Below, one piece after another: positions 2,252 through 30,632 of a stretch of DNA of 32,365 nucleotides. This stretch comes from Nemertoderma westbladi (lineage: Eukaryota > Animalia > Xenacoelomorpha). The notes under the pieces are model-generated. The model made no database searches and was not told where the DNA came from. It was given only the letters and a program-made list of their open reading frames with translations. The position numbers and the translations under genes are program-made. The stretch's first letter is position 1. Every line of letters begins with the position of its first letter. The stretch is from assembly GCA_032718475.1 (NCBI GenBank), contig JAUCBJ010002950.1, forward strand, positions 1 through 32,365. Direction: 5' to 3'.

Positions 2252-2625
2252 TGTTCGCGCTTTCAGACCTTTAGCAGTTTAACCTGTCAATTTTAGGTGT
2301 CCTCTTGTTTATAAATCGACTTTAGCCTATAACAATTATTTAATGCACATGAAGTAACATTAGCCGAAGCCAGTCTATGCGCGATCATTAACCCACAGTT
2401 AAGGGAGACTGGACTCGGATGCTTTGACCTTATTGCGTTGCAGACCTACTGTATTATTCGATTGATTGTTACTATATAATCTCTGACAATATTATTCACT
2501 TTCGGGGAAATATTAACAGTTCCTTTAGGACGTGGCGCTTTAAGTATAAAACAGAGTTATGACTTATACTAAACACAACGAGATGGCTACTGATTTTCGT
2601 AAATAGCGCATTCTTTAGGAGATGC

Positions 2626-2631
2626 TTTATT
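2626..2631 (-). promoter_or_regulatory. Candidate polyadenylation signal AATAAA in the 3' LTR
   Basis: TTTATT on plus = AATAAA in element sense. The same site is at 17322-17327 in the 5' LTR. Confidence 0.45.
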
Positions 2632-3362
2632 ATCTGTCACACTGCTGCATACGATTTCACACTGCTGCACACTGATCTGCCGACCGTCACTGAATTTGAT
2701 CATATATAAGGAGGATAGCAACTGACACATGTAGGGATTATGAAATAGCATTTAATGCACACTAAAACCACTGTAATGTAAGTCGCAATTGCTACCGGTA
2801 ACCGGTCCCTCTAACCTTTAGTAATCAAGAAGATTGGGGGTTTTATGATTATTTATCGATATTCTCCAAATATAACAACATATCCATCAACATATAACCA
2901 TTAATAACAGACAGTAAACAGAAGTACAATAATGCGGTGATATTCAGCCAGTATCGGTAATACCGGTACCGCAGGTGCCAAGTGACCAGTTGTTATGGTT
3001 AGTTGCACAGTTGCATAGTGCAGCAGGGCCAGGTGTTATTCAGTCAGTCCAGTTGACAGGTGATGCAGTTGATGGCCAGATAATAGATTTACGTTCTTGT
3101 AATCAAAGCCGTCTAATGTTGGCCAAAGTCTGAAACTTCTAACACAGAAGTACAGAATAATTTCCAAGCAGTTGTTCTCGCTCAGAAAGGTAAACAAAGA
3201 CCGTAATGCATTGCGCGATTTCCTGTAGGTTTCTGTGCAATATAAAATTAAAATCGCTCTGATTGGCCGAGCGAGCCTGAACAAAGAAAGTTCCACATCG
3301 ACAGCAAATCAGCTGACAGATTTCGTCATCTGAACTACACTCTATTTAGAGTATTTGGCGTA

Positions 3363-3491
3363 TTGCGGCATAAAATGGCTTGTTATGTCCGCTAAAACAC
3401 CTACAGGGTACATTGCGGAGAAAATGGCTTGTTATGTCCGCTAAAACAACTAAACAGTTAATTGCGGAGAAAAATGACTGGTTATATCCGC
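3363..3491. repeat. About 50-bp tandem repeats (2 full + 1 partial) with internal dyad GCGG...CCGC at the U3 end of the LTR
   Basis: TTGCGG(C/A)...AAATG(G/A)CT(T/G)GTTAT(G/A)TCCGC starts at 3363, 3413 and 3462. Mirrored at 18051-18179. Confidence 0.85.
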
Positions 3492-3504
3492 AAAAGCTTT
3501 TACA

Positions 3505-3512
3505 CCGCTCCC
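3505..3512 (-). other. Short polypurine tract (GGGAGCGG) abutting the 3' LTR
   Basis: Minus strand reads ...CTGGGAGCGG|TGTAAAAGC, the expected position of the plus-strand primer. Confidence 0.6.
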
Positions 3513-3582
3513 AGAAAATGGGATTTAATTCTATAAAATATAAAAAATCACAGTTTCTAAAATATAAAAATACTCTAAACAG

Positions 3583-5136
3583 TTAGTCTTTCTTACGCGA
3601 ACGGCGTTTACGCGGTTTTTTGAGGCTAGCAAGAGTCCTTTTCTCTTTGGGGCGAGCCACTTTTCTAGGAGGGCTATAACTCCTAGGTGAAGGGTGCAAT
3701 ACAATTGCCTCAGAAGGTTTAGGGTTACGGTCAGTGTGTCCGCCGGTCGAGGTACCCGGTTGATCGGTATCAACCTCAGTGGAACGAGGTCGAACAACCT
3801 TGAGAGCGCGTTTTAAGACAGCAGCTCTTACTGGTCCCTGACGGGTCGTTTGCACGAGAGCAGTAGGTGGACCGTGTGTAGTGAGAAATTTCCTCAGTTT
3901 GATGGTTCTTTCCGACTCGCGTTCTCGGGCTCTGTTGAAATCGATATGCTTCTCCTCGAGCTGATTTTCCTCCGCTTGTCGTTGGAAGCATTCATCCAAA
4001 ACTCTTGCAGAGAGTAGGGTCGTCCAAGTTCGATATCTTCTTAGAGGTTCTGGATTTCCCGATCAAACTGAGATAAAGCTAATTCGTTTACCGCTTGGAC
4101 TTGCTGCTGCAATTTACGTTTCTCTAAACAATCGTAGGTTCCTTTTCCGATCTTTTGTCGAATAGTGTCTAACGCGTTTCGTTCAACTCTCTCCTCCACC
4201 TCGGTGACAGGTTGTATCGGGGTTAAACCGGGACGATTATACGGGTTGAACGGCGATATTAAATGTCCGCATCCCAATCCGGCTAGGTAGGATGGGCGAA
4301 TATCTAGGGAGCCCACAACCGGAGTGCCACCGACTAATTGTTCGGGTAACACCAGATCTTTGAACAGTGAGTACAGTTCAGGAGGATCAGTTATACTATT
4401 AGGATCAAGAGTCTGAGGTCTCACTAGGGAATGAGGAGGTCTGACCGAGTATTCCGGAACTCTGATCACTGATTATTTAAGGATCGTTTGAGTCGAGCGA
4501 GCGTAGGTGATACGTCGAACAAGTTTTGCTCGAAACTCCCATAAGTATAGCGAGTAAAAACTGTGTTTAGCGCAACGTCTCCGAGGATGCTTATGTCTTT
4601 CCGTATGTTGGTTGGGTCCAGGGCACTCATCGTAACAATACCAAAGACGCACGTCCCGTAGGGGAAACGCTGGTGATCTTTCTCCAGTTTTACAATGTCT
4701 CTCTCAAGAATTCCAAAGATACGTTGAAGTCACTGCGTTTATCCGGTTCTTTAACGTCTTCTCTTTCGAGTTAGTTTCGAATAGAATTTTCGTGTTCGAT
4801 TCTCAGTTTATTGTTCCGACTCCGCTGGGTATGATATTTAAATATGATCAATTCCCTTTCGGTGTCTACATCGTCCATATCGTGTAAATCGATAGGATGG
4901 CCAGTAGTAAAGAAGTCTATATACGTACCATTACGATGCGTATAGCGAGCGGTGAATTTTCTATAGTCCAATTCACGCATGAGCTGTTCCTTTGACATTG
5001 GCAGCTCGATATAACGGCCATCGTCCTCCGTAGTGGGTTGACTAGCGTCGCCGCGTATTAAACTATCAACAAACGCTTGCAATGGTAGGGTATATCGCTC
5101 CCTGATACCAAGATCATCTTCTATCAACTCAGTCAT
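3583..5136 (-). pseudogene. Degenerate accessory ORF(s) of unknown function between pol and the 3' LTR
   Basis: Consecutive sense-strand reading segments: 5136-4771, ~4728-4466 (LQRIFGILERDIVKLEKDHQRFPYGTCVFG...), 4469-4041 and ~4045-3583. They form a higher-GC island flanked by AT-rich DNA, start at ATG 5136 and end in the basic tail KKPRKRRSRKKD. No signal peptide or TM segment seen. Confidence 0.6.
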
Positions 5137-5945
5137 AGCTGCTATATGAGTTTATCGATATTATAATTAATTATAATTTAGACTAGCGGTCGTTGCTGCC
5201 TCCCCCTCAATGCCCCCGGACAGCGCAAGCTCCTCAGCGCTGATGTACTTTCATCGCTGTGTCTATCGCCAACGTAGTAGCTGCACAACGACAACAACAA
5301 CCAGCGCGAGTCACTCCACTGTCCGTCCCAAGGGCTTAGATTTACTTCAGGTTCTTACTGCAGGGGTAGGGCTACTTTCACAACTGCGACTCGCTACTGT
5401 AAACACACTTTAGTAGTAACATTCACCTATAAACACACAAATTCCACACAACTGTCACAAATTGTACACATTCGGGCCATTTGTCCGTTAGTCAAGTGCC
5501 TTCCAGAATGCCACGTTATTATTATGTATCCCTGGATACTAGCAGTGCGCTATTTATTCCGTATGCTATTCAATGGGGCAAGCTTTATATTGTTCTTTTA
5601 ACTCACATCTAATTCTAGCGTGGTGGTTGCTATGGTGACATTATGGAAAGCTAGCGGTAGAATTAGGGTAATTCTCATGCATACAGATCTGGGATGCTAT
5701 TTAATAGTAATTCTTTAATTGTCAATATTCCCCCTTATACATGATTTTATGAATTTTATCGGCTATTGACTATATATTGGAGATTCTCTCACACTAATAT
5801 ATTTAATAGGGCGAATCTCCGCTCCCATGATCTATTAATTAATGGAATTTTGGGAATGTTATAAATTGTATAAAATGATAATTTATCAAATTCATGAGAG
5901 GATATGAATTTAAAAATTTATTCCCGTAAATTTTATTATTTAATA

Positions 5946-6299
5946 TTAAAATAGGCACAATTTTATTCCAGAGCATGTCTGGGGACTGGGATCCTTGATT
6001 CTAGGAAATTTGTCCTTTTAAGAGTATCGGTGAGTACTACGATATCTTAATCGATTTTAAAGGATCTAAATTTTAACAGATTTTGATTTATAGATTTTCT
6101 TGGTTTACAAACTCCTTAGAGTTTATTTGTATGCATTTACTCTATTATAACATTTGTTTTAATAGATTTTATAAATATTAACTATGTAATATTTAAGATG
6201 GGCACCGATTTATTCCAGAACATGTCTGGGGACGTTAACCATTGATTCTAGAATTTTGTCTTTCAAGTATATCGGTGGGTGCCGCGATATCTTAATCGA
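5946..6299. repeat. Two diverged ~110-bp direct repeats, 247 bp apart, in the pol-accessory ORF spacer
   Basis: Shared blocks TTTATTCCAGA(G/A)CATGTCTGGGGAC, TTGATTCTAG, TATCGGTG and CGATATCTTAATCGA at 5946-6054 and 6193-6299. Confidence 0.85.
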
Positions 6300-6863
6300 C
6301 TAGAATTACAGATGGTCAAAGGGTTTAACAGATTTATTTTGCGTTGTACGCTACTGTTAAAGGGACATCACACTACTATATGTATTATTTAATATACGGT
6401 ATGAGAGCAATATTGCAAGAAGCAATGTCAGTGAGAAGAGGCAAGTCATTTCCAAGGTCTACCCAGAGCTTGGTTTAGCCGAGACACGAGGATCTGAACT
6501 TTGCATTCCTAATACTCTACTTACCAATAATACTTGAGTATAGTAGGAGCTTTATTGTACTTTAATAAGTACGGACATTTCATCTTACTGTAGTCACATA
6601 TTTATAATATGATACGGACAGTAAGGAAAGAGGAAAGAATTATTTCTCGCCGTTGCACTAAATATATATAATATAAGTAATTAAGTAATAAACGCGAATA
6701 TATATGGCACTAATTCTACTAAATAATCGCTAAAATAACATTCTACTAAATAAAAATTAAAGAAAACGATTATTATAAAATTACATAATAATACATACCT
6801 AAATATAAAAATAATAAAAAACGAATATAAAATAATATGGTCACACACCCACTCCAGACGCTG

Positions 6864-8405
6864 TTACGTTGGGGAGTCCCTAGATGTTTGTTGGATTAGG
6901 GAGGTGGTCGTGGGAAGAGTATCTTGCCTTCCATTGTTTCCGGACAGTTCTCTGTCTCTTTCCAGTAAACATAAACGACCAACTGGGCGATTGAGCTGCT
7001 GTGTTTCGAACACAATTCCAATTCCACAATTCCATCATCTGAGATATGAGTCTCGATGATACGACCTGTCTGCCACCGCTTACGTGGAAGATCTGATTCC
7101 ACAATAAGGACCATGTCTCCGGCACTGACGTTTTCTTGCTGCGCAAACCACTTGGTTCGAAGTTGTAGCGTAGGCAGATAATGTTTTTCGAAATGATCAG
7201 CGAAACGACGGGATAATAACTGCATAAGTTGCCAAGTTTGTCGGCAGTATTCATCTCCGTCCGTGATTTCCGATCGTGGGAGCATGGCTACAGGTTTCTT
7301 CAGTAGGAAGTGCACGGGTGTTAGCGCTTCCAGGGAATCGGGACTCGATGAGACTGGCATAAGCGGTCTTTCGTTAAGATAGGCGGCGATTTCTTCCATT
7401 AACGTCCGCAAAAGTTCGTCGGTGAGATACGCGCGGCACGGCACTATAAAGTGAAATGCGGTCTTCACGCTTCTTATTTATCTCTCCCAACTTCCTCCCC
7501 ACCAAGGGGCGTCGGCGGCGTTGAATGTCCAGCTAGACGCTGTTACTCTTAGCTGATCGTCCACCTGTCTTTGGTTCCAATATCTAACGTAAGCCTTGAT
7601 CTCATTATTGGCGCCAATGAAGTTCGTTCCCTTATCAGATCTCATCGTGTTGCTAGTTCCAAAGCGAGCGATCTGTCGGCGTAGACTCAGTATGAAGCTG
7701 TTGGTAGATAGATCGTTCACCATATCTAAATGGATCGCTCTACAAGTCATACAGACAAAGATGGCACACCATCGCTTGACTATAGTCCTGGCACGATATA
7801 CTTCAATAGGGCCAAATAAATCCACACCGGTATTAGTAAAGGGTGGTTCATAGAAGCTTACTCGTTCCCTAGGTAATTCTGCCTCTCGCTGTGTTAAAGG
7901 CCTACTGAATGCTTTCCTACAGGGTATACAGTTCCTAAGAACTTGGTTCAGAGCTCTACAGCTCGTAAGAACTCGTTCTCTACCAGCATGGTAAAGCTTA
8001 CTGTGAACATCTACAATCATCTTGATTTGTATTTCAAGATTTCTAATGAGTATGGGAAACTTAGTGTCAAAGGATAATGGAGCATTAGTTAGCCTCCCTC
8101 CAACGCGTATTAGCCCATCTATCATTGTGCTAGAGAAACGATCCCTTAAGCGCATCTGTGGATTTCTCAACAACAGGAAATACTTATCGGAATCTTCATA
8201 GCATTGCAGTAGTCTCAGTATCTGCTTATTGGTTTCTTCATGCTCCTGGTAACTGATCTTCTCCGTCAGAAACCTATCTGAGATTTTATATTTGGGAAGA
8301 TCTTTAATAGCATGGACCTGCACAGATGTCAGTGGAGCGGTATCACTAGCGATCTTCGTCCTGGAGTAGTGATAATGGAAGCATCGCTTGAAATACGCAA
8401 CGGCC
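6864..8405 (-). pseudogene. pol: BEL/Pao pol: integrase (HHCC Zn finger, DDE core, C-terminal domain), disrupted
   Basis: HSKLYHAG...CIPC, GVDLFGPI, SDKGTNF, WGGSWER, then an in-frame TAA at 7478-7480, then NERPL...LTPVHFL. A frameshift near 7020 restores the canonical RPVGRLCLLE, ending at TAA 6864-6866. Confidence 0.93.
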
Positions 8406-10533
8406 TTACAAGCCGATTCCAGGAGCTATAGTGATGTATCGCTCTCTGTAGGAGAGGTGAGAGTCCCTGCGAAACGTCTGGTGTTCCAGATTTCCAGTCT
8501 CTCTCTCTGATTTCCACAACAGACTTATTTGTGGTGGGGGAGTTTAGATCCACAGCGTCGTCTCCGGAAATATGTAGTACAGACAGATCTATCACGGGTT
8601 TAAATAACTTCGATTTACTCGTCTGGGTTTTAGGTTTGACTTTCTCCGCTCCCTTGGCTTGTCTAATCTCAGCCGTGGTAAGATGAGGAGGCCATTCATC
8701 TTCTTCTTTACTTAGGAAGTCGGGTCCACCTAACCAGTCTGGAGTGTCTACCAGTTCTTGAGGAGTTGCTCCTCTGGAGGCGATGTCGGCTGGATTAATC
8801 GTCCCAGGGCAATGTCTCCATTGATCTACACTAGTGCGACTAAGTATAATGGCTACTCTGTTGGTAACGAAGACGCTGAACTGACAGACTTCATTGGTTA
8901 TATACTCCAAAACGAGTAAAGCATCAGTCCAATAGACAGTTTTCTCCAGTGGATAGTCGATCTGTTCTGTGACGTTCCGGCCGATGGCTGTAGCGTATAG
9001 AGCCGCCTTTAACTCCGCTCGAGGAACTCGTAGTTTGTTGTTTATCAAGGCCTTAGAGGTAACCAAGGCAACTTTAATTCCATCCGGAGTTTCAACTCTC
9101 AGGTAGGCTACTATACCTATTCCCATATCGCTGGCGTCTCCAAACACATGGAGTTGAAAGGAATACGTGGGGAGAACATGACCAAAATATGAACGAGAAA
9201 TCGTAAAGTTCTCGATGGATGGTAGAGAATCTTCCCATTTCATCCACTTCTTTAGTAGTTCTCCCTTAAGTGGATCGTCCCACGAGTGGTTTTCAAGCCA
9301 CATTTGTTGAACTAAACTCCGAGAAACCAATATAACTGGGCTAATAAATCCCAATGGATCGAAATAAGTGCTCAGGATACTTACACAAATCCGTTTAGTT
9401 CGAACTGGATTATCTCGCTGTTTTAGCTGGAAAAACAGGATATCTCTCTCCGTGTCCCATTTCAAACCAAGCGTCTTGGTTTCTGGAAGATCGTCCTTGA
9501 TTAGGTCCAGGTCTTTAACTCCTCGGTCTTCTACCGGGATCGATTCCAGAAACTCACGGGAGTTACTGGTGAATTTAGTTAGTCGAAATCCACCACGTTT
9601 CAAAAACTCTACCGTTCCCTTGGCAACATCAATGGCTTCTTCCACCGATGGGAGGGACTTTAAATTATCGTCCATGTATATATCCCGTTTGATGTTGTCG
9701 ATAACCGCTTTAGAGAAGGCGTCTCGGTTGTCATCAGCAGTGGTGCGCACTACTGAACAGGCATTCGAGGGGCTCGAGATGATTCCGAAAGCCTGGATGG
9801 TCATCCAGTACTCCACAGGTTTTTGGCTGAGGTCTCCTTCAGGCCACCACAGAAATCGCAGGCTGTCTCGATCCCTATCCAGCGCCTTAACTTGTAAGAA
9901 CATGCCTTCTATATCTGAGGCGAAGGCGATCGAATATTGCCGTAATCTTAAGAGTATTCCCAACAAGGATTGGAGTAATTTGGGTCCCGGCAACAACTCC
10001 GAGTTAAGGGATTGGCCCATGTAAAGGGCGGAGCCGTCAAATACTACCCGAACTTCATTGGGTTTACCGGGTTTGGGAACGTAATGATGGGTTAAATAAT
10101 ACGTTATCTTAGTTATGGGTATTTCTTCCGGTACTCGCTCCGCATATCCCTTATCGATGAATTTCTTCAGCTGTGTCTTGTACATCTCTTTAGCTGAAGC
10201 ATTTGCCGTAAGGCGTCGATGTAGTTGCGCGATTCTTTTCTCCGCCAAGGGTCGGTTATTTATAAAATTAGGTTCTCGCTTTCGGAATGGCAGACCAATC
10301 TCATACCTCCCTTGATCACTAAGGAAACGTGTAGTCGTTGCCTGGATCTGCTTGGCTCTTTCCTCCTCGACTGATAGTGCTTTGTCATAGGAATTAGGCT
10401 CTACAGCTTCTTGAGTAAAGAATCGTACGGCGTGTTCGTTGCGAATCTTAGCGTTATGTCGATCTATCACCTCATTTAGCTCATCGTCATAGTTGAGTTG
10501 TCCGCCATGATGGACGAGATGGCAAAGGTGCAC
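8329..10533 (-). pseudogene. pol: BEL/Pao pol: reverse transcriptase and RNase H
   Basis: YYLTHHYV, RVVFDGS, SLNSELLPGP, DIEGMFLQV, FGIISSP, YMDDNL, KTLGLKWD, FDPLG; RNase H LHVFGDAS/PRAEL/WTDA/NPAD. A 1-nt frameshift near 8405 (RLVR/AVAYFKRCF) joins it to the integrase frame. Confidence 0.96.
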
Positions 10534-11466
10534 TTGGTTTCTCCAAGCTTCACTTTCAGTGAGGAGGTCTATCGTATTTTCCTCGTCAAATAGTTGGGTA
10601 ATATCGTCGTTATCTGAGGGGTATGGTGTTCCCTCAGGTGTGATTTCTCCCTCACTGATTTATTCTTCCCATTCACTCACTTGGTGGATTTGTTCAGTGG
10701 GTAATCTTTCCATGAGCGTTCTACGGGAAGGTCCAGTGAAGTACCAACCTACTCTAGTTCTTCCCGCATAGGTTTGCAATGGTTGCGGTCGAGCAGGTCG
10801 TTTCTCTAATGTCTCAAGCGCCTCATGCGCATTTTAGCCGATTAATATTTGCACCCCTGGGTAGCCAGTGTTGAATCTAGGGATATTATGTTGCTGGGTA
10901 AAATCTTCTTCATCCCAGTTGTAAGGTTCTACTTGGCTGGTAGCAAAGTTCTTTATCGCCACCATTTTTACTGACCTTATGCTGTGTTCTCCTAGTTCGT
11001 CTTGGGGAGTGGACAACGCGCCTACATAGTAGTCTGTAGCTACTGTAGATTTCCAAACCTGCATAATTCCTGAAAGGTTCAACTTAGTTCGGAACTTGGG
11101 TTGTCCTGCAAAGATGTCTTCAGCTAGTTCTTTATCGATGAAAGTTCCTGTACTGCCGGAGTCCAGGAGTGCGTTGACTATAAAACTCTTACTTAATCCA
11201 TGGACTCTTAGCTGAACTACGGGGAATTCCCGGATTCCAACGTTGGAAGTTGGTGCTTTCCAAGATGGTTGTCGGTCAGGAATAACCGGGTGCGCTTCGT
11301 TATCGGTTTCAGTCTCATACGTAAGCGCTCGATACACCGCGGTGTTTATCAAATAACAGGATTCGTTTTCGTCTGAGAATTTGTCCATATAGAATCCTTC
11401 CATCTCAGAACTTTGGTCAGTGTCGTTCACATCACTGAATTGGACATGTAGTTCGGACTCACTCAC
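10534..11466 (-). pseudogene. pol: BEL/Pao aspartic protease and linker, with two in-frame stops
   Basis: NALLDSGSTGTFI active site; VQILIG then TAA at 10834-10836; in frame AGRTRVGWYFTGP; second TAA near 10660; continues in frame into RT. Confidence 0.92.
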
Positions 11467-14400
11467 TTACTCGGGCTGTTTCTTTCAAATTCGGTGTGCA
11501 ACAAGATATGATGTTTCGCGCCGCACTTAGCACACCTCGCATCGGAGTAACAGGTACGCCGTTGGTGTCCTTGTCTGAGACAATTATAACACAACCGCTT
11601 ATCCCACATGACATCACGTCAATCTTTTAGGGATTTCTTTAAGAATTCATCACACACACTTAAACGGTGGGGCCTGTCGCACAATGCACATTTTGGTTTG
11701 ATGTTACGTACTTTACCTTGGGTAATGTTGTGCACACTCGTTCTTTCCTCGGGCTTTCTTCCATGAACTCTCTTAGGAGACGTAGGAGGAGTTTTTGTTA
11801 CCTGTTCTCTCCTGTCACTGGTTCGAGACTTAAATTTACTTACGTCTTTAGGTGCTTTGTTGACATAGTAAGATCTTTCGGTGTCTTTCCCGTTGTTCTC
11901 CTCTTGAGAGGTCTGGCTTTCGCTGTCGTCTGTATAACACACTGGTGTTACCTTTCTCCTAGAAACGGGTTTTTCACTTACCTTATTTTCCGGTGTCTTC
12001 TCTCTGGACTGCTTTAGGAGCTGTAATTTTACCTCTCCATCTAAGAATGACATGAGGTCAGCCATGGTAGGGTCTCTTCGTTGTTGTTCCATCATATATA
12101 GAACTCTTTTGTCCCAACGAGTACCTACTCCACCCTTTGGCAAGGTAGATGCTACAGCTCCAATAACCATAGAACTCTGATACTCATGAGACTTACCTAG
12201 CCAATCTAATTGTCTACAAATCTCCTGGATCTCATCGGAAAATTCTATAATCCCGCTGCTAAGAAACTTTCGTGGCGCTACCAATTTCGGTAACAAGTAC
12301 CTAGCTATGTTATTCCTATTACCATACCTGATGTTTAGTGTATCCCAGACTTGTCTTAATCCATCTGGATGTCCAATAAACTTTAACGCCATTAACTTGG
12401 GAGATCCTTCCAAGCACTCGATGAGGAATCTAAGTTTCTCTCCGTTAGATAGCACAGAGTTCTGTATGTTATCTTTATAATATTCATTAAAAGGTAACCA
12501 TTTCATCTCATCTCCATTGAACTTGACGATCTCTCCCACCGTTACCGCTTGACGGGCTTCGGTTCTAGCCATTTGACGCGTAAAACTTTCTTGGGCCATC
12601 GTATTATTTAATATCGAGTTATCAGTATATAAATTTCTAGGATTATGATCAGGTCTATATGGAATATCATTATCAACAGGTTTATCATTACCCTTAATAG
12701 GGTTTACTATAGGAGTTTCTACTTCACTAGCAGTATAGATGTGTGTAGGCTCCACACCTTGCGCATGAAATACTTCAGACCTAACAGGTTGACACATTGT
12801 TACAGGGGGTGGTGTTATACCCCTTTGTATATTTACTAATTTATCGCGTTCTAATGCGATACTCTGCTGCACTTCTTGCAGTTCTAACCTACCCTCTCTT
12901 ACTGTTCCCTTTAACTGCTGCACAGTCCCTTCCATTTCTCGGACGTGCTGGGAGGAACGTAGGCGCTGTTCCTCCAATTGCCCAAGCTGGAGATCCATCC
13001 CCCGCCGTCCCTCATCCACCCACTCGACCGCCGAAGCGGGAGCTGCCAATATAGTAGCGGGTAGACGAGGGACGACGGGCGATAAATCGTTGATGTCTCG
13101 CTCGGCGTCCAAGACTGGGACTGTTTCTGTGGCTATTCTATTGGGCACAGGTAATTTAGTACTGTGCAAAGGGAATTTAGAGTTAGGTTCTGGAAGTACA
13201 GGTGTCTCTATCACCGAAGGGGTGGCTTCGAGAACAGGCCTAATTATTTCAGGCTCATCTACTATAGTAGGGAGTCTTTCTACTCTAATAATTTGGTCTG
13301 TGGGTTCTGTACTACCTAAGTCTGCACTAGCTAGTTGTCTTCTCACAGCTGGGGGCAAATTAGGCAATTTCTGATGGTGAGGTGTTCTTCTACGTCTGCT
13401 GGAACGAGATCTATTTCCTCCGCCTTCAGGATCTGTTGTATCGCCTTCATCAGATGATGTAAATCCCTGTCTCTTGGGAGTAGATCGACTTATCATCTGC
13501 ATCTGCTTATCTGTTCTTTGTTTATTGAAGTAGTCTTGCTTCTCTTGAAGATTTTCCAACTCTAGTTGGACTGTCTCTTCAGATGCCCTCCGTTCTGCTG
13601 CTGCCACTGCCTCTGCCGCCTTTCTTTCCGCTTCTGCCGCTGCTACCTTTCTTTCCGCTTCGGCCTCTGCCGCTGCCATTTTTCTTTCCGCTTCTGCCGC
13701 CTTTCTTTCCGCTTCTGCCGCTGCAGCTGCCGCTTTTCTTTCAGCTTCTGCCGCTTTTCTTTCCGCTTCTGCCGCTGCAGCTGCCGCTTTTCTTTCAGCC
13801 TCTGCCGCTGCAGCTGCCGCTGCCGCTTTTCTTTCAACTTCTGCTGCGGCCGCTGCTGCTGCCTTTCTGTCTTCTATCCGTTTTTTCTTTAATTGTTCTT
13901 CCTGTTCCCTAGCGATGAGGATACTTTCATCAAATTTAGCTTGTTCTACGGCTAACATTTCTGCATCTAATGCGTCTAACACAAATTTAGCTCCCTCACT
14001 AGAAGGATGAAGTCCAGATAGTCGTCTCCTTAGCTCTTCGTCGCCTATAAATCGTTGATAGTCCGACAGATAGATGTCAATGGCGTCCTTCTTCTGAGGT
14101 TTCTCTAATGTAACCTCGCTTTCCACCTGAGAAAAGGTAGCGTCTGTTGATTCTCCGTGGGTCGAGCGCTCAGTTAGCTGAAATTTCCATTGGGTCGTTC
14201 CTTGAACTTTGAGACTCACCCGTTGGAACCAAGTCTTTACGGCAACTTGCAACGACGTGTCTTGGCTTCTTTTCGAAGCTTCCTCAAAGGCCGATAGGAT
14301 TAGTCTGATTCTTAGGATACGTTCTCGAACTTGATAAAGCAGCTCTCCCTGCTCTTGGGGTCCTTGGGGTTGTTGAAACAGTTGTTCCTCTAATCGCTCC

Positions 14401-15041
14401 AAAGAGCTGAAGAACCCCTGTACATATCCTGCTGCCGACCTCTTCCACACAGCTGGATCTCTAGTGCCCTTCACCACTCCCATCCTGTATAAGTCCTCCC
14501 AGGCAGCTTCCGATAATTTAAACGGGAGTCCGGGTCCGGGGAAGTTCCATTGCGTCTCGACAATAGACTTCAGTTCCTCCATTGTGTATCCCGCATAACT
14601 GTCCTTGGTCGATCGCTTACTTCTCGCCCAATCGATTTGATGTTCCTCCACCGCAATCAATACTCTAGTGAGTACGGCTTCAGGAAGAATGAGAAGTGGA
14701 TCCGAATAAACTACTTCTGCTATCTTTGCTCCGCGCTCGGGTGTCAACTCTACAGTATCGGAACTACTGGAGCTATCGGGCCGCTGAGAAATAAGTTCTC
14801 GGCTCGGGTGTTGCTGCTGTTTAACAGCTGCCTCTTGGTCCCGCTTGACTTGAGCCCGAGTGCCTATGATAGACCTACGGTGCTTTACTAGCCTAGGGTC
14901 TGATACTACTACTGAAGGGATGACTTTTCTTACAGTAGGAGGGGACTTGAACTTTGGTCTCAAATGTTCGGTACTCCTGTCGGAGTCGCAGAAGGTTGTT
15001 TCTAGGAGACTATCTGACAGAGTTTGCTTTGTGTAAGCCAT
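11463..15041 (-). pseudogene. gag: BEL/Pao gag with long N-terminal extension, capsid-like (DUF1759-type) region and three Zn knuckles
   Basis: 1140-aa ORF with KFNGDEMKWLPF...EKLRFLIECLEG...LNIRYG. CALCDRPHRLSVC precedes a premature TGA (11619-11621); in frame after it come CYNCLRQGHQRRTC and CAKCGAKHHILLH. Frame change to protease at ~11466. Confidence 0.92.
13595..13868 (-). repeat. Coding tandem repeat (AAAAEAERK)n inside gag
   Basis: Repeated GCAGCGGCAGAAGCGGAAAGAAA(A/G) variants, about 9 ERK units; alpha-helical/coiled-coil composition. Confidence 0.9.
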
Positions 15042-15177
15042 GTTTGATTGTACAGTTGAATGCCTACTACTATAACAACAGTTAAAGCAAATCTAGTAAT
15101 TCAGTATCAACTGTTAGCCTAGTAATTAATTACCGATATCATTACTCAATGTAACGTGATATATATATAATATATTA

Positions 15178-15431
15178 GAATACCGGTATACACTTATAGT
15201 ATATATATAAGTATTATTACAGACTAGGGTTTGTCACAGAATACCGGTATATAATTTCAGCATAAATATATATAAATATATAATAAGCCTACCGTGAATA
15301 CCGGTATGCAGCTCACACTTATAGTATATATAAGTATAATTATAGACTAGAATTAATTACAGAATACTGGTATATAATTTCAGCATAAATTTATATAAAT
15401 AAATATAATAAGCCTACTATAAATACCGGTA
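15178..15431. repeat. About 120-bp tandem duplication in the 5' leader, punctuated by ATACCGGTA roughly every 60 bp
   Basis: CACTTATAGTATATA...AGACTAG...CAGAATAC(C/T)GGTATATAATTTCAGCATAAAT...AAGCCTAC occurs twice (15178-15296, 15296-15420). Confidence 0.85.
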
Positions 15432-16936
15432 ATGTCAATTATTTTAGAATAACTGAATTTCTGAATTTTAGGATTACTTTCCTTTACTTTATTACTGTTA
15501 TTAAGCAGTAGACCAACTGATATTAAGACCTAATTGATGTATGACAGGCCTACTATTTTATAAATCGGTTTGATTTGATTTATAATATATATATACCCTT
15601 ATAATGGGTTTTTGACAATATTTGAAATAAATGTTATTATTTCTGGTAAGGAGTCACTACACAGAAGCTGTACGCTCTCAGTGAAGTGCTACTTGTTGGA
15701 CACTAAAACAAATAATTCTACTTGACTAAGTTACTTATTACTACAAATTACGTACAATTACTGGGTGAGATTACAATCTCTAAATAAACACAAAAATTAC
15801 ACGTACAAATTTTAGGGTAATCTTACAGGAAATCTACAAACCAGCCTAACAAGGGTTAGAATTTCTGGTTATTACAAACGGAAAGGAAACTACGGTATTT
15901 GAAAATAATTAAGCAGTAGTAAATAAATTGCGTTGTCCAGATAAGAAAATACCACCGTCTGACGACTTATAGTCTTTAGCTGTACAGCTCTATAAGTACT
16001 ACGTTATGTACCCGGAGTGTTCTTACCTAGAAGTTAATTACCGCAGCCAACCAGAGCTAACGTGCCTATTAACCACTTTACAACACAAATATACCGCCTA
16101 CACACTAATTACCTTCGGAAAGTATTGTACACTAAACCCTAAATTAGGTACAAGTACTTATACAACAAATAACCAGCAGTTAAAAATACTTGTACAGCCA
16201 AAAGAACCACGGTATCTGCTGGAGTGACTAGAGCATAAAATCACCAGTCTTCACCTACGCCAAGCAGCCCTGATGTAGTACCGGGGTTAATTTAACTATA
16301 ACGGTATGTATAACAAGCACAATTACTGTAGGAATAAACTTGGGGAGTTATGTATGTTGCGAATACTCGCATATACTCTGAATAATAAATATTACGCTAC
16401 CCGTGCAGACTACACAAACAAAATACAAACCAAACGCTGGCAGACTACTATCAAGCCTAAATAAACTACAGTATATGCAGACTCCGAAATGGTTAGTTAG
16501 TATGCGTTCTAACTGAGTAGTATGACTTATTCTTTCGGGGGGGATTTACCTTACAGCACTGGATGCCCCCACCTTCCTAACTAGTACTTTATCGGACATA
16601 CACTCTACACACACTGCAATCTCTTCAGACTTAACGACAGTCAGACAACAATCCAGCCTACAAATTATTTATACAATCTGAGCAGGCTTACACGCCTTCT
16701 GCTCAATATTACACTTACAAATAAATAAAACTGACAGAAATAAGTAAAATCCCAATAAAAAACCAGGGCTGCAGTCCCTGATTAAATTTCAAGACCTACC
16801 GGTATATAATTATCAAAATCGAATAATACTGCTGTACCTGTAAGTACCGGTTCGGGTAGTCGGGCAGTCAGGCCTACAGCTTACCGGTCGACCGGTACGT
16901 TTGACTTTATTGCCTACGGTGTAATAAAGAATCTGA

Positions 16937-16947
16937 AAATCTATTAT
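16937..16947 (-). other. Non-tRNA primer-binding site candidate (ATAATAGATTT), complementary to LTR 17768-17778
   Basis: First 11 nt after the 5' LTR in element sense. No TGG start. Perfect reverse complement of element-sense AAATCTATTAT in both LTRs (17768-17778, 3080-3090). Confidence 0.65.
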
Positions 16948-18192
16948 TGTTCGCGCTTTCAGACCTTTAGCAGTTTAACCTGCCAATTTTAGGTGTCCTC
17001 TTGTTTATAAATCGACTTTAGCCTATAACAATTATTTAATGCACATGAAGTAACATTAGCCGAAGCCAGTCTATGCGCGATCATTCACCCACAGTTAAGG
17101 GAGACTGGATTCGGATGCTTTGACCTTATTGCGTTGCAGACCTACTGTATTATCCGATTGATTGTTACTATATAATCTCTGACAATATTATTCACTTTCG
17201 GGGAAATATTAACAGTTCCTTTAGGACGTGGCGCTTTAAGTATAAAACAGAGTCATGACTTATACTAAACACAACGAGATGGCTACTGATTTTCGTAAAT
17301 AGTGTATTCTTTAGGAGATGCTTTATTATCTGTCACACTGCTGCATACGATTTCACACTGCTGCACACTGATCTGCCGACCGTCACTGAATTTGATCATA
17401 TATAAGGAGGATAGCAACTGACACATGTAGGGATTATGAAATAGCATTTAATGCACACTAAAACCTCTGTAATGTAAGTCGCAATTGCTACCGGTAACCG
17501 GTCCCTCTAACCTTTAGTCATCAAGAAGATTGGGGGTTTTATGATTATTTATCGATATTCTCCAAATATAACAACATATCCATCAACATATAACCATTAA
17601 TAACAGACAGTAAACAGAAGTACAATAATGCGGTGATATTCAGCCAGTATCGGTAATACCGGTACCGCAGGTGCCAAGTGACCAGTTGTTATGGTTAGTT
17701 GCACAGTGCAGCAGGGCCAGGTGTTATTCAGTCAGTCCAGTTGACAGGTGATGCAGTTGATGGCCAGATAATAGATTTACGTTCTTGTAATCAAAGCCGT
17801 CTAATGTTGGCCAAAGTCTGAAACTTCTAACACAGAAGTACAGAATAATTTCCAAGCAGTTGTTCTCGCTCAGAAAGGTAAACAAAGACCGTAATGCATT
17901 GCGCGATTTCCTGTAGGTTTCTGTGCAATATAAAATGAAAATCGCTCTGATTGGCCGAGCGAGCCTGAACAAAGAAAGTTCCACATCGACAGCAAATCAG
18001 CTGACAGATTTCGTCATCTGAACTACACTCTATTTAGAGTATTTGGCGTATTGCGGCATAAAATGGCTTGTTATGTCCGCTAAAACACCTACAAGGTACA
18101 TTGCGGAGAAAATGGCTTGTTATGTCCGCTAAAACAACTAAACAGTTCTTTGCGGAGAAAAATGACTGGTTATATCCGCAAAAGCTTTTACA
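16948..18192 (-). repeat. 5' LTR (1245 bp)
   Basis: Direct repeat of 2252-3504, upstream of gag in element sense. Contains a CCAAT box (GGCCAATCAG, minus strand, ~17947-17956). Confidence 0.97.
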
Positions 18193-18197
18193 ATAGT
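18193..18197. repeat. Right 5-bp target-site duplication (ATAGT)
   Basis: Identical to 2247-2251. Confidence 0.95.
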
Positions 18198-18204
18198 TGA
18201 TTAC

Positions 18205-18238
18205 TGCTTGATAAAGGCCTGTTGGCTGAAATATAGCA
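18205..18238 (+). ncRNA. Minimal type I hammerhead ribozyme motif (U3:A8 variant), inverted copy
   Basis: TGC-TTGATAA-AGGCC-TGTT-GGCT-GAAA-TATA-GCA. GAAAUAUA parallels the GAAACGUC of minimal PLE hammerheads, with a palindromic stem III. Reverse complement of the 2150-2188 copy apart from a 5-nt duplication. Confidence 0.72.
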
Positions 18239-20346: not shown

Positions 20347-22091
20347 TAGAGATGGACACGACACGGGCCGGGCCGGGGGCCGCATTTTAAATATTTGAAC
20401 GCCCGCTATTGTTGAATAATTATATTATCCAGTTAAAAAAAAAATATGACAATTTTTGTATACTTTTTATTCACAAAATTAAATGTATATATTTAATTTT
20501 CATGTTAGTAGGGTTGTTTCATGATTTAATTATGTCTTTGTTTAACTTTGTAATGTACATTTGCTACATACTCAGACTCACATACGGTACATATATATAC
20601 CTATAATACACAGACTCATAAGTAGGCTTACCACCTGGTTACGCGAACTTTGTTCCAATGAGAGTAGCTCAACTGCCAACTTTGTTCCAATGGTAGATAA
20701 CTTTGTTCCAATGGTTAAGATCTTTGTTCCAATGGTTGCGAACTTTGTTCCAATGGTTGTGAACTTTGTTCCAATGAGAGTAGTTCAACTGCGAACTTTG
20801 TTCCAATGGTAGAGAACTTTGTTCCAATGGTTGCGAACTTTGTTCCAACGGTTGCGAACTTTCTTCCAATGGTTGCGAACTTTGTTCCAATCGTTGCGAA
20901 CTTTGTGCCAATTAGAGTAGTTCAACTGCGAACTTTGTTCCAATGGTAGAGAAGTTTGTTCCAATGGTTGAGAACTTTGTTCCAATGGTTGCGAACTTTG
21001 TTCCAATGAGAGTAGTTCAACTGCGAACTTTGTTCCAATGGTAGCTAGAACTTTGTTCCAATGGTTGTGAACTTTGTTCCAATGAGAGTAGTTCAACTGC
21101 GAACTTTGTTCCAATGGTAGAGAACTTTGTTCCAATGGTTGTGAACTTTATTCCAATGGTTGAGAACTTTGTTCCAATGGTTACGAACTTTGTTCCAATA
21201 GATGCGAAACTTGTTCCAATCAACTTAATATAGGCTAACATAATAAAGTTTTACGCAAAATATAACAAAGTTTTGTCAGTCAGGAAGCATTTGGGTACGT
21301 TTAGAAAGATAAGGAAACGTATCTGCAAGGTGGTCAGTTAAGCAGACTGATGGGAATCAACCTGGGCCTGGGGCAATACACTACACAGCTGTATACCACT
21401 GTCTCCTCTTAATTAATACAGATCCCGTCAGAGTCTGGCAATTTACAAATAGGTATTTTCAAACTTCACCCGTGTAATAATGCAAGCTAAGGTGATCAGG
21501 ACGAAACTTGTCCATTATCTCTATAGAGCATCACACACTGTATTCTCTACACTATTATAGGCCTACATCTCGCCTCACCCTAGTCTGCTAAAATAACCAA
21601 CCAATAGGCTAGTCAACTAGGCCTACTACAGTAAAACAACGACAACAATAGGCCTACTAACAACAAAGTGAATTCCGGTACCGGTAATGTTTGCTAAGCA
21701 AACAACAGCATATTTTATCAGTTTCTGCTGTTGAAATCAAACGTGTAACGCGTACTACATTATTTCATTTTAAACAACAAACATAATGTATTAATTAACA
21801 TGGTAAACCTACGCAACGTGTACCGGTATATCTGTCTGCATCGTATATTTCGAGTTTTCTAATGCACAAACAACAATAACAATGGCTCACGATGACAAAC
21901 TGATATTGTATTTGGAATCAGTGTATGTAAAATGGTCAGAAACGCAAAAAAATTATTTTATGCTGTACTGTTTAGAAAAATTAAAATTAACGGCCTTGGC
22001 CGGGCCGGGCCGGGTAGGGGCTGGGGCGGCCGAGACCCAACGGGCCGGGGCCGGGCCCAGGCCGCGAAATGCTGTCCCGTGTCCATCTCTG
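20347..22091. mobile_element. Non-autonomous hAT-like DNA transposon
   Basis: TIRs TAGAGATGGACACG (20347-20360) and CGTGTCCATCTCTG (22078-22091), 13/14 match. GGGCC-rich subterminal repeats at both ends. Flanking 8-mers CTTCACCT / CTTCATCC (6/8) fit an aged 8-bp TSD. No transposase. Confidence 0.8.
20645..21220. repeat. Composite minisatellite of 21-bp (GAACTTTGTTCCAATGGTTGC) and 32-bp (GAACTTTGTTCCAATGAGAGTAGTTCAACTGC) units
   Basis: Roughly 24 copies of the core AACTTTGTTCCAATG with two alternative tails. Confidence 0.95.
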
Positions 22092-24369: not shown

Positions 24370-24585
24370 ACCACCTCCATGCAGCTTGACATTTGTTGTA
24401 CGGAGCTGCCTCATCTTTGCAAGACATTGTTTCGCCGCCGTGAGGACCAGCCAGTGCATAATCTTGTGCTTTGGTGGCCTCATGGAGTGAATAAACATGG
24501 TACACAGCCCATGACATTCTTGAAGCGCCTCTTAAAGGACACTCGCCTTGAAGATGCGGTTCATCTAACAATTGTCATGGGTGAT
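24370..24585 (+). pseudogene. RTE-like LINE 3' remnant
   Basis: RREDQPVHNLVLWWPHG...PMTFLKRLLKDTRLEDAVHL; paralogous to the minus-strand remnant at 25065-25260. Confidence 0.7.
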
Positions 24586-25064
24586 ATGGCGGTTGATATG
24601 GGGAGTTATGGCGGCGCAATTTTGTCAACAAGCCGTCACAGCATTCTTAATATGTATATATTTAATATATATAATGCAGCTGCAATGTAGCATGCCGATA
24701 GTAGTAGTAGTATTAACAATTCCGATGATATCAAGCAATCAGACCAGGCATGACAATCAATTAACCTGCCCGCTGGGAGGAAACGCCAACCAACCACCAA
24801 TGTTAATGCTGAATCTACAGCTGAATGCCTCAATAATGGTTGGAAGGTCCACTTTGAGAAGCAATTACTAAACAATTGCACGCAAAGGGTATTGCCTGAT
24901 AACTTCAAGGTACATTGTGTGTCTGAATCTGTGCTCACTGATATCCACATTGCATTGATGGCATCTTTGCTGAAGTTAAGACTGCCGCAATGAGTACAGA
25001 CTGATGCACCATGCAATCCACAATTGGCATAAGAATGCTCTGCTGGCTTATCGACAAATTTACT

Positions 25065-25990
25065 CAACCAAAACTCCCTATCCTCAATGACTTTCGCGAG
25101 ATTATCCGCATCTTCGAGGCCAGGCCCCTTTAAGAGCCGTCTTAAGAAAGTCATTGGCTATAAATCTCCACCTTGCATATTTTCTCCATGAGGCTGCCAA
25201 AGCACAAGAATGTGCTCAATCTGGTCCTCATGGCGATAGCAATGTCCTGTGAAGCGTAGTCGTCTTTGTTGAAGTGCCAAGAATGGGGGTACCAATGAGA
25301 CACATCCAATGTTATATGGTGTCCGATTGCGATGTGTAGATTGTATTTGACACAGAGAACTCAATGTAGCATTATTGTGTATGTGCCATCCAGACTACCA
25401 GATATTTGATGTCCTCAGCAGTTGTCCTAGCATGGACTCCAATATAGGAGTGCTGGTTTTACTGCTGCTCTAAATAATCGAATCGTAAGTTTCCGACATT
25501 TGCCTATGTGACTTCCAAATACTGGACACCCCATTCAATGCTGCCCATGTCTTTCGAAGGCTCACCTGACTTCCGGATGCATGATCCCGGGAAACATAAA
25601 TCATCCACATACTGAACATCAGCTTCCTTAGAGCTTATGCTCATACAATAAGAGATTTCCTGAAAACTACTGTACTATCGAAGTTAACTGTTAAAATGTT
25701 GGTCTTCTTTGAGTTAACAAATAGACCAATACTTGATGCAGCCCGTACTAATGAGCTTAGGCGCCATCGGGCTCCCTCTAGTGATACTAATAGTTTTACT
25801 CTCACGATTCCTGGATGGAGCATGTCTTAGCAAAGTCTAAATCAGCTACAGTAGGTGCTTGGTTAGATATCCTTGGCATCTGGAGCCTGTATGTGGTGTT
25901 ACAATCACCCCATCTTCATTATGACTATCTATAAGGACATGCGTAGTTCATAGTCAACCGCAATTATGAATTATGAACCAGATTGGTGCA
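25065..25990 (-). pseudogene. RTE-like LINE remnant: RT motif 4 to C-terminus
   Basis: Fragments APIWFII/IAVDYELR, VADLDFA, AASSIGLFVNSKKT, IRLFRAAVKPALLY, QQRRLRFTGHCYRHED...LWQPHG, DREFW; many frameshifts. Confidence 0.8.
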
Positions 25991-27792: not shown

Positions 27793-28635
27793 AATATAAA
27801 TAAATAAAAATACTAAAAGATAATAATATTAGATTTCCAATAATTTTTATCCTAGAAGTGCTATAATATAGATTAGAGTGTTCAATTAATTCTCCGCAAA
27901 TAATGATGTGACAGGATATGACGGGCGAGTCAAAACTGGGAGCCATCAATGAACCGTTATAATTATACTATCTCAGTTTTCCAAATCTCTCTGTGTGTGT
28001 CAGTATGTCTGTCCGAAATCATAATATAGTCGTAAATAAGCATAACATGCAATAGTACTCTATGATTACTGTTCGATGAGATGCTTGCAGTATTCCTGTA
28101 AATTATAATGTAAATTTTCCTCATCTTGATATATAAAGTTTACATTACGTCATTACAGACTACTGAATATTATACACATAAAGCTCTAATTGTGCTATGA
28201 GGCAAACCAAATTTGAAAGGTGCTATATTTTGCAATATAGGTAACAACACTCTCATTGGAGGTCAAGATACTCATCTCCTACAGCCGCCACACCTGTATG
28301 AGAAGGCTGCGGGAGCCAGACGATACACGTCGCGATTATCTAGTATCCAACGAGGCGTAGTCGACTTGCGACTAGCGCACCGAGGCGATGCTGCACACGG
28401 AGTAGCACAGGACGAGACATTGGCGCGGCCGAGGTACAGTCTACCCCACAATCTCAGTGGTGTTACCCTTAAAGGGAACAACCTCATGGGACGGGAAAGG
28501 ACAATGAGTACAGTCTCCATGGTGAAGACGTGGCGGGGATCAGAAATGATAGACGAAAGTACATTGAGTCTTTATATTCAGGCTGAGAAGGAAACAAAGG
28601 AAGGCAATCAATGCTGCACCCTACCTGCCTGCATA

Positions 28636-29907
28636 ATGGGTATACAAGTAAGTTTCATTCCCAAACGATTGGGTATACAAGTAAGTTTAATTCCCAAACG
28701 ATTGGGTATACAAGTAAGTTTCATTCCCAAACGATTGGGTATACAGGTAAGTTTCCTTCCCAAACAAATGGGTATACAAGTAAGCTTCATTGCCAAACAA
28801 ATGGGTCTACAAGTAAGCCTCATTGCCAAAAGATTGGGTATACAAGTAAGTTTCTATCCCCAACGAATGGGTATACAAGTAAGCTTCATTGCAAAACGAA
28901 TGGGTATACAAGTAAGCTTCATTCCCAAACGATTGGGTATACAAGTAAGTTTCTTTCCCAAACGAATGGGTATACAAGTAAGTTTCATTCCCAAACGATT
29001 GGGTATACAGGTAAGTTTCCTTCCCAAACAAATGGGTATACAAGTAAGCTTCATTGCCAAACAAATGGGTCTACAAGTAAGCCTCATTGCCAAAAGATTG
29101 GGTATACAAGTAAGTTTCTATCCCCAACGAATGGGTATACAAGTAAGCTTCATTGCAAAACGAATGGGTATACAAGTAAGCTTCATTGCAAAACGAATGG
29201 GTATACAAGTAAGCTTCATTGCCAAACGATTGGGTTTACAAGTAAGTTTCATTCCCAAACGATTGGGTATACAAGTAAGTTTCTTTCCCAAACGATTGGG
29301 TATACAAGTAAGCTTCATTGCCAAACGATTGGGTATACAAGTAAGTTTCATTCCCAAACGATTGGGTATACAGGTAAGTTTCCTTCCCAAACAAATGGGT
29401 CTACAAGTAAGCTTCATTGCCAAACGATTGGGTATACAAGTAAGTTTCATTCCCAAACGATTGGGTATACAAGTAAGCTTCATTGCCAAACGATTGGGTA
29501 TACAAGTAAGTTTCATTCCCAAACGATTGGGTATACAAGTAAGCTTCATTGCCAAACGAATGGGTATACAAGTAAGCTTCATTGCAAAACGAATGGGTAT
29601 ACAAGTAAGCTTCATTGCCAAACGATTGGGTATACAAGTAAGTTTCATTCCCAAACGATTGGGTATACAGGTAAGTTTCCTTCCCAAACAAATGGGTATA
29701 CAAGTAAGCTTCATTGCCAAACGAATGGGTATACAAGTACGTTTCATTCCCAAACGAATGGGTATACAAGTAAGCTTCATTGCCAAACGAATGGGTCTAC
29801 AAGTAAGCCTCATTGCCAAAAGATTGGGTATACAAGTAAGTTTCTATCCCCAACGAATGGGTATACAAGTAAGCTTCATTGTCAAACGATTAGGTATGTA
29901 TACAAGT
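28636..29907. repeat. 33-bp minisatellite, about 38 copies (consensus ~ATGGGTATACAAGTAAG(C/T)TTCATT(G/C)CCAAACGA)
   Basis: Uninterrupted 33-bp period. The variant unit TTTCTATCCCCAACGA recurs at ~28851, ~29115 and ~29841. Confidence 0.97.
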
Positions 29908-30632
29908 CATCGAAACGAAATCGAAACTGAAAACTTTTTTTTTTTCAACGAGAATGTTTAGATGCAACTTTATAACTCATTTTCAAATAAAATACATCTC
30001 AAATATTTTTGAGTAGTAATGATTTTTCGGCGGATGATTGTAAGTTTAGCACCACATTTTTAAATCAATGGTTTGTGTCCTCTTCTTTCTAGCGTTATAC
30101 GGGCTTCTTAGGGGCCCGCGTCCAATGGAATAAATGAGAATGGCACTTGACTTTGCAAACTTCTATTTTTCAGCTGTGAGTGGAAAATTTGGTGCTTGGA
30201 CAAACATTGTACGTCAAAAATTCGACTACCAAAGAGTTTTCATAAATATTTGTAGATTTCAGAGCGGTGGAGGGTGAAAATGACTCCCACCAGTATTTTT
30301 ACAAAATGATAGCCCGGTATTAAAAGTTAAGGTATTGTATTCTACCCTTGAACGATTAGATTATTTGCATACCACTCCGACCTCCTCACATTAGATGTAA
30401 TGATTCTGGGCCCCTCAAACTATCTGTGGTATAACATCATGTTTGTAACTAATTCTATATTCTAGCTTATGTTTACAAAATAATTTATCACATGTCAATC
30501 ATTACAATCAATGACGGATAATTATTAAATTGATGTGGTATATGGTTGTGATATAGATAGATTTTGTTCGTCATCAACCAACAACCCAAATGCGCCTGAA
30601 TGATTATGGATTGTAGCTGAAAAAACCTATTA

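Follow-up and report, generated by a model that had tools for sequence, protein, structure and literature searches.

A BEL/Pao retrotransposon of Nemertoderma westbladi whose primer site is complementary to its own long terminal repeat

Results

The retrotransposon described here was found in a window of 32,365 nt from Nemertoderma westbladi (the whole stretch of DNA analyzed), where it occupies positions 2252 to 18192 of the minus strand (15,941 nt). It is flanked by a 5-bp target duplication, ACTAT (18197-18193 and 2251-2247; descending coordinates follow the sense of the element). The 5' LTR (16948 to 18192, minus strand) is 1245 nt long, with TGT...ACA ends, and the 3' LTR (2252 to 3504, minus strand) is 1253 nt long; an alignment of the two has 13 mismatches and 8 gap columns, a divergence of about 1%. 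A purine-rich tract (3505 to 3512, minus strand) adjoins the 3' LTR with zero spacer. The whole element lies between perfect 39-nt inverted arms (2158-2196 and 18197-18235), which points to insertion into a hairpin-like repeat.

The gag frame (11619 to 15092, minus strand; 1157 aa, first ATG at 15041) matches the Pfam family DUF1759 (E = 3.4e-11) and includes a low-complexity Ala/Glu/Arg/Lys repeat (13572-13880, minus strand). Pol (6896 to 11466, minus strand) is spread over several broken frames, so that this copy is defective though young, and comprises a protease piece, a reverse transcriptase (RT) with the YMDD motif, RNase H/Peptidase_A17, an integrase-like piece, and DUF5641. RT with RNase H/Peptidase_A17 was matched at E = 7e-37 and DUF5641 at E = 5e-18. 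DUF1759, Peptidase_A17, and DUF5641 passed the Pfam cut-offs; the aspartyl protease match was weak and below cut-off, and the integrase piece had no Pfam match. The element's frame also has four acidic motifs at the positions usual for RNase H.

These assignments agree with the original prediction of a BEL/Pao element: gag and pol families lie in PR-RT-RH-IN order between TG...CA LTRs with a short target duplication. Protein searches returned 66 homologues at E = 1e-30, most of them with PF05380, and identity to the closest relatives in RT-RNase H is about 40%. A chromovirus-type Ty3/gypsy pol, as in the Tf1/sushi group, was not found; both the Pfam families and the homologues are those of BEL/Pao. 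The gene order, Pfam families, LTR ends, and purine tract are likewise shared with Belpaoviridae (Semotivirus) as profiled by ICTV (PMC8742986). That profile describes an 18-nt site that pairs with the 3' end of tRNA-Arg or tRNA-Gly, tRNA-primed replication only, and lengths of 4.2 to 10 kb, whereas the element here is 15.9 kb long and has no such site. It is thus BEL/Pao by its proteins and departs from the family description in the primer-site trait.

Several other features lie within the element. Between the integrase and the 3' LTR (5151-3583, minus strand) are extra broken frames of 126, 143, and 159 aa, the last with a very basic run at its end; they have no Pfam match, and the first piece has no Atlas match at 0.9 (only scores of <0.9). 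The 3' region also holds a duplication of approximately 110 nt with 245-nt spacing (5946-6299). In the 1.9-kb leader there are donor-like words at 16884, 16799, 16718, and 16691 (minus strand) and an acceptor-like stretch that ends at 15070, 29 nt before the gag ATG, and a large leader intron (16884-15070, minus strand) is possible from these words. An Rfam search (E up to 1) found no match at the LTR; it yielded two microRNA matches, both below threshold and located in gag.

Elsewhere in the window, a 304-aa frame (1082-1996, minus strand) has a GIY-YIG match (E = 1.3e-5) and is perhaps a piece of a Penelope-like element. A 586-aa frame (28201-29961, plus strand) consists largely of a 33-nt tandem array with 38 overlapping copies listed, and its Pfam matches were rejected as repeat artefacts. 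There is also a repeat of 21-nt period (20624-21241) and a 66-nt inverted repeat around a 173-aa frame (24436-25235).

The 5' LTR ends in GCGCGAACA, and the 11 nt that adjoin it, the primer-binding position (16937 to 16947, minus strand), read ATAATAGATTT. The original prediction was that these 11 nt replace a tRNA site and are perfectly complementary to a stretch inside the LTR, and both points are correct. There is no TGG in the 38 nt from 16947 to 16910, and the reverse complement of the 11 nt occurs once per LTR, at 17778-17768 in the 5' copy (the partner; 17768 to 17778, minus strand) and at 3090-3080 in the 3' copy. The 3' end of the partner is the predicted 3' end of the primer. As predicted, pairing ends at 11 nt: no match of at least 12 nt is found anywhere in the LTR, and site offsets of -5 to -1 give 8 nt or less. 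The element therefore has one trait of the Tf1 type, a site adjoining the 5' LTR that is complementary to LTR (R) sequence. Since no tRNA site is present and the primer position pairs with the element's own LTR, priming by its own RNA is likely. A donor-like GTAAA at 17780 overlaps the partner.

The probability that such a match arises by chance was first estimated at 0.002, which is about right: the 11-mer was present in 27 of 20,000 dinucleotide shuffles of the LTR (0.0014), and pairing of at least 11 nt was obtained from 5 of 13,427 internal start points and from 2 of 1,898 in the AT-rich leader. The pairing alone is a 1-in-700 event and falls short of proof. It could be a coincidence, the original tRNA site of this defective copy having been lost, as the broken pol, the AT-rich 11-mer, and the fact that screening many windows meets 1-in-700 events would allow. 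The same LTR-end context nevertheless recurs in two other sequencing runs, in one of them with the same first 7 nt after the LTR, and the family and cross-family conservation described below is not expected of a coincidence, the probability of which we consider close to negligible.

The family data consist of thousands of short element contigs from four runs and two coded organisms, and 368 contigs could be placed on 17735-17830 (190, 104, 72, and 2 by run; runs X1 and X2 come from a single sample). For 17763-17797 no variant reaching 1% is listed, and several appear from 17798 onward; the block from 17767 to 17797 (minus strand) is thus invariant at this level, and the copies diverge directly 3' of it. 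Summed depth falls in X1 from 49,425 at 17775-78 to 308 at 17759-62, and the corresponding drops are 70,752 to 790 in X2, 31,127 to 212 in X3, and 3,437 to 0 in X4. The drop is no edge effect, since a long stretch shows an identical one. The loose ends at 17765 disagree with one another (agreement of 0.5 to 0.6 in X1 to X3), and so many different sequences follow the partner. Taken together, the invariant block and the collapse in depth mean that conservation ends within a few bases of the predicted primer end. The statement concerns the partner side; on the primer-site side, 40 of 386 variant rows were listed. The LTR stretch right after the partner (17614-17766, minus strand) is hypervariable, with 44 to 152 nt replaced by other letters in contigs.

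One candidate for a primer of another kind is the 5' half of the host tRNA-Phe, its anticodon arm pairing from the fourth or fifth base after the LTR and the LTR match being due to chance. Among 120 loci matching the search pattern, 42 are tRNA-Phe(GAA) genes, and all 42 pair over 11 to 12 nt at offset 3 or 4; half-tRNA primers are reported for copia lineages in the accessible part of PMC6317226. The pattern was, however, chosen after the likeness had been noticed, the tRNAs come from viral contigs and not from the host, and pairing at offset 0 is 5 nt or less. In organism B, a loose end in run X5 retains the initial 7 nt of the primer site and differs in the remainder, the part that would pair with the tRNA. 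Priming by tRNA-Phe would also leave the invariant LTR block and the relatives unexplained, and we regard it as extremely unlikely. No tRNA genes were found within the window.

The original prediction went on to propose a strict Tf1 geometry, with the transcript starting at 17778 and its first 11 nt serving as the primer. The duplex is exactly 11 nt long and begins at a pyrimidine-purine step, as that geometry would have it, and the invariant block, which extends some 19 nt upstream of 17778, might serve as a core promoter without a TATA box. The lack of a clear TATA box 30 nt upstream had been recognized from the start and proved general: among 17 elements, none has a TATA match of at least 7/8 in the interval 22 to 38 nt before the duplex, while 8 of 16 relatives have such a match 114 to 202 nt upstream. 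Given this lack, a start at 17778 is unlikely, and the primer is more likely the 3' end of a longer leader. No run identified as RNA contained this stretch, and run X5, which may be RNA, has no cover at 17621-17915. In this element the candidate promoter (17927 to 18036, minus strand) has TATA-like words at 18036 and 17934, which would put the start near 18005 or 17900. The CCAAT at 17954 and the AATAAA, a candidate poly(A) signal (17322 to 17327, minus strand; about 440 nt downstream of the partner), are both present as first described. A poly(A) hexamer follows the predicted primer end in 14 of the 17 elements. Together with the TATA positions, these hexamers make it likely that the partner belongs to R and terminates a leader of about 100 to 240 nt.

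Two further points tell against a start at 17778. The duplex is predicted to extend beyond the 11-mer on its 5' side (17786-17782 with 16931-16927), and the partner of most relatives is interrupted by a predicted intron, which would leave a first exon of only 4 to 9 nt in the spliced relatives. The strict geometry is therefore unsupported, and we consider it unlikely.

Folding gave a less favorable picture of the duplex. In Tf1-type self-priming, a flanking U5/leader stem supports the primer duplex, and such a stem had been proposed here. A local U5/leader hairpin that spans the LTR boundary (16930 to 16965, minus strand) is indeed predicted, with pair probabilities of at least 0.9 for five of its seven pairs in all four folds, but it competes with the 11-mer helix and does not flank it, and so this Tf1-type support is absent. 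At equilibrium the 11-mer helix had a probability of 0.0 for all four assumed starts, being outcompeted by the hairpin. The partner is outside the eight best 31-nt LTR windows by duplex energy, and the AU-rich helix of this element ranks second when compared against 16 other leaders. As a family trait the stem was rejected, since it is the best own match in only 1 of 17 elements.

Relatives were collected as 80 loci from metagenome contigs (80 of 507 confirmed); a search of viral contigs with protein and alignment found no relative. Sixteen loci were first examined, and the LTR end was fixed in 13 by the divergence of the two LTR copies; we excluded L059 and L061, whose repeats turned out not to be LTR ends, and L068, which duplicates the family of L042. 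For L018 and L074 the end was adjusted manually, and that of L049 is uncertain. Two of the 13 have TGG-type sites, and the one in L078 matches a tRNA-Met site quoted in the available portion of PMC5445492. Allowing one G-U pair, a duplex of 11 to 15 nt with the own LTR is formed by 11 of the 12 non-TGG elements, the window's element included, and one of only 4 and 5 nt by the two TGG elements. When each site was paired with another element's LTR, 11 nt or more was reached in 2 of 182 combinations. Pairing is thus kept with different letters across families, the compensatory change that had been named as a test of the original prediction. One cross pair, the site of the window's element with the U5 of L022, reaches 15 nt and counts against this reading.

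In 7 of the 11 self-pairing elements the partner forms only when two segments of the LTR are joined at a GT-AG junction; it is contiguous in the window's element, L049, L057, and L070. The predicted intron is a T-rich stretch with GT-AG ends between two paired LTR segments. L042 was missed by the acceptor filter and reached 10 nt with a looser one. This first test was not blind, as the splice rules were set after the pattern had been spotted by eye. A fixed rule was then applied to 63 of the 80 loci, and it gave 18 matches compared to 13 among 3,906 cross pairs. Nine of these matches come from the 41 loci that were neither in the first set nor duplicates of it, and four (L033, L035, L069, and L072) are at loci never inspected before. 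The other 45 of the 63 loci had no match, many of them lacking a whole LTR there; L036, which has the 5' LTR start, had none of at least 9 nt. A scan with unspecified LTR ends was discarded because its cross control reached 12 nt and there was no discrimination.

Each of the 13 predicted introns examined carries a GTA(A/C)G donor, a pattern that was part of the search, and 59 to 88% pyrimidines before the acceptor. In all 13 intron elements the predicted duplex is stronger with the intron removed than with it in place, though with the splice constraints removed a GT-AG split is among the longest pairings in only five of eight. The predicted primer ends are AC in 13 of 17 elements, AT in 3, and CT in 1. 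The L025 site (56-80) pairs with the LTR of L054 (6608-7027) over 14 nt across the junction compared to 9 nt unspliced; it begins with TGG yet pairs with a predicted junction, and could be mis-annotated as a tRNA site. For the window's LTR, a spliced partner was rejected, since the best of 10 candidate introns gave 8 nt against 11 nt unspliced. The element accordingly reads as an intron-less form of a wider splice-junction pattern, as judged from its letters.

The duplex begins 0 to 4 nt after the LTR end in the self-pairing elements. In 6 of 13 this offset equals the spacer between purine tract and 3' LTR (Spearman 0.63, p = 0.02; four elements to which the spacer rule is not applicable were left out), a weak hint that both mark the ends of the linear DNA. 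These positions bear on another explanation, in which the pairing is real and selected but structural, with a role in packaging, dimerization, or a splicing or translation switch, and some other RNA is the primer. Long-range U5/leader pairings are common in retroelements, and the donor-like word at 17780 could explain part of the conservation of the partner. Against it, the duplex always begins where a primer must end, and conservation stops at the partner's 3' end; the relatives have no other primer candidate in common, and the equality of offset and spacer counts weakly against it as well. We consider this explanation very unlikely, and priming by the element's own RNA remains the best reading, supported by conservation within the family and covariation across families.

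In a tree of 40 rows, with insect BEL/Pao proteins as the outgroup (L076 was left out, also from a larger FastTree), a branch with a support of 88 sets 15 self-pairing loci to one side, and another (99) carries three TGG loci. L061 (about 730-760) and L043 (17-45) have TGG-type sites like that of L029, on the same well-supported branch. The self-pairing L025 groups with the TGG branch (83), so that self-pairing occurs on either side of the fork; a single origin followed by a return to tRNA and several origins are indistinguishable. The window's element is a long branch (1.42) at an open fork, and because it is unplaced in this way the evidence from the relatives carries over to it by analogy.

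Discussion

On this evidence, the element likely primes its own reverse transcription, and it is likely that the primer is the 3' end of a longer 5' leader of its own RNA and not the first 11 bases of the transcript. Transcription would start about 100 to 240 nt upstream of the partner, and the partner would anneal to 16947-16937, probably with the help of nucleocapsid, the helix being weak. The RNA would then be cut just 3' of 17768 by a nuclease, for which the RNase H of the element is the most likely candidate, following what is described for Tf1/Tf2 (PMC5341516); RT is described as cleaving the self-primer in the Tf1 group in the available parts of PMC5341516 and PMC4600332. From the cut end, RT would copy about 820 nt of U5 and R until it reached the cut again, and the minus DNA would jump to the R copy at the 3' end of the RNA, between the cut and the poly(A) site. 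The 3' R copy would supply everything upstream of the cut, the intron included.

In most relatives the same primer end would be built by splicing the LTR intron out, whereas this family would carry it ready-made. As the upstream sequence would come from the 3' copy, that copy must stay unspliced in intron-bearing families, and the model thus needs an unexplained escape of the 3' LTR copy from splicing. Splicing of that copy, where it happened, would produce intron-less families such as this one. A spliced transcript that primes an unspliced one in trans would fit equally well.

The closest known parallel is in Metaviridae. Tf1 and Tf2 of S. pombe, Tj1 of S. japonicus, and Tf1/sushi elements likewise use no tRNA and have a site by the 5' LTR that is complementary to their own R; Tf1 primes with 11 nt of its own mRNA. 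The element here differs from these in several respects. It belongs to BEL/Pao and not to Ty3/gypsy, its partner is likely at least about 100 nt inside the transcript and not at the 5' end, the partner is split by a predicted intron in its relatives, and its U5/leader stem is not conserved and the loop is about 820 nt. It likely works like a self-primed retrotransposon without being a member of Tf1/sushi, and an origin independent of Tf1 is plausible.

Self-priming is reported for Tf1/sushi and Tj1 in the accessible sections of PMC6317226 and PMC4600332, and the former shows that it has been proposed outside Tf1/sushi: the copia TAR elements (Houba, Osr-1) and plant Tcn1 chromoviruses are also predicted from sequence to be self-primed. 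These are plant elements of other superfamilies, and the part of PMC6317226 available mentions no splice-built primer. The fungal GalEa copia elements with a Conserved Hairpin Site have also lost a tRNA site kept by relatives, but in their case the site has given way to a local palindromic hairpin, and no complementary sequence was found in the LTR (PMC5445492, in the portion accessible), in contrast to the partner within the LTR found here.

For BEL/Pao itself, replication in Belpaoviridae is called poorly understood (PMC8742986). The main texts of three BEL/Pao surveys (PMC3118150, PMC6238403, and PMC8556966) do not contain the words primer, PBS, or priming; the available text of the Sinbad paper (PMC554778) uses primer only for PCR, and the available text of PMC8220671 and PMC3601003 has nothing on self-priming of BEL/Pao. 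Within the literature covered, which does not extend to subscription papers and Repbase reports, we found no report of a self-primed or splice-primed BEL/Pao element.

Element-encoded primers take other forms, such as the tRNA-like primer of Cer7 in C. elegans, for which our literature search returned nothing.

We are evenly divided on a broader proposal, namely, that a broad BEL/Pao branch of marine-invertebrate type primes with an internal 3' end of its own capped leader. This end would mostly be splice-built from two exons, possibly on a separate transcript that primes the unspliced genome; families like the one in Nemertoderma westbladi would have lost the intron or never had it, and a nested tRNA-primed group may have switched back. 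The model makes exact predictions: cleavage after 17768, and splice junctions specified for individual loci. Such elements are missed or mis-called by LTR annotators for which a tRNA site is obligatory. If self-priming is true here, a further superfamily uses it, with a geometry unlike that of Tf1. A splice-made primer, if true, would link host RNA processing to the initiation of reverse transcription, and it would pose the puzzle of how an intron survives copying through RNA.
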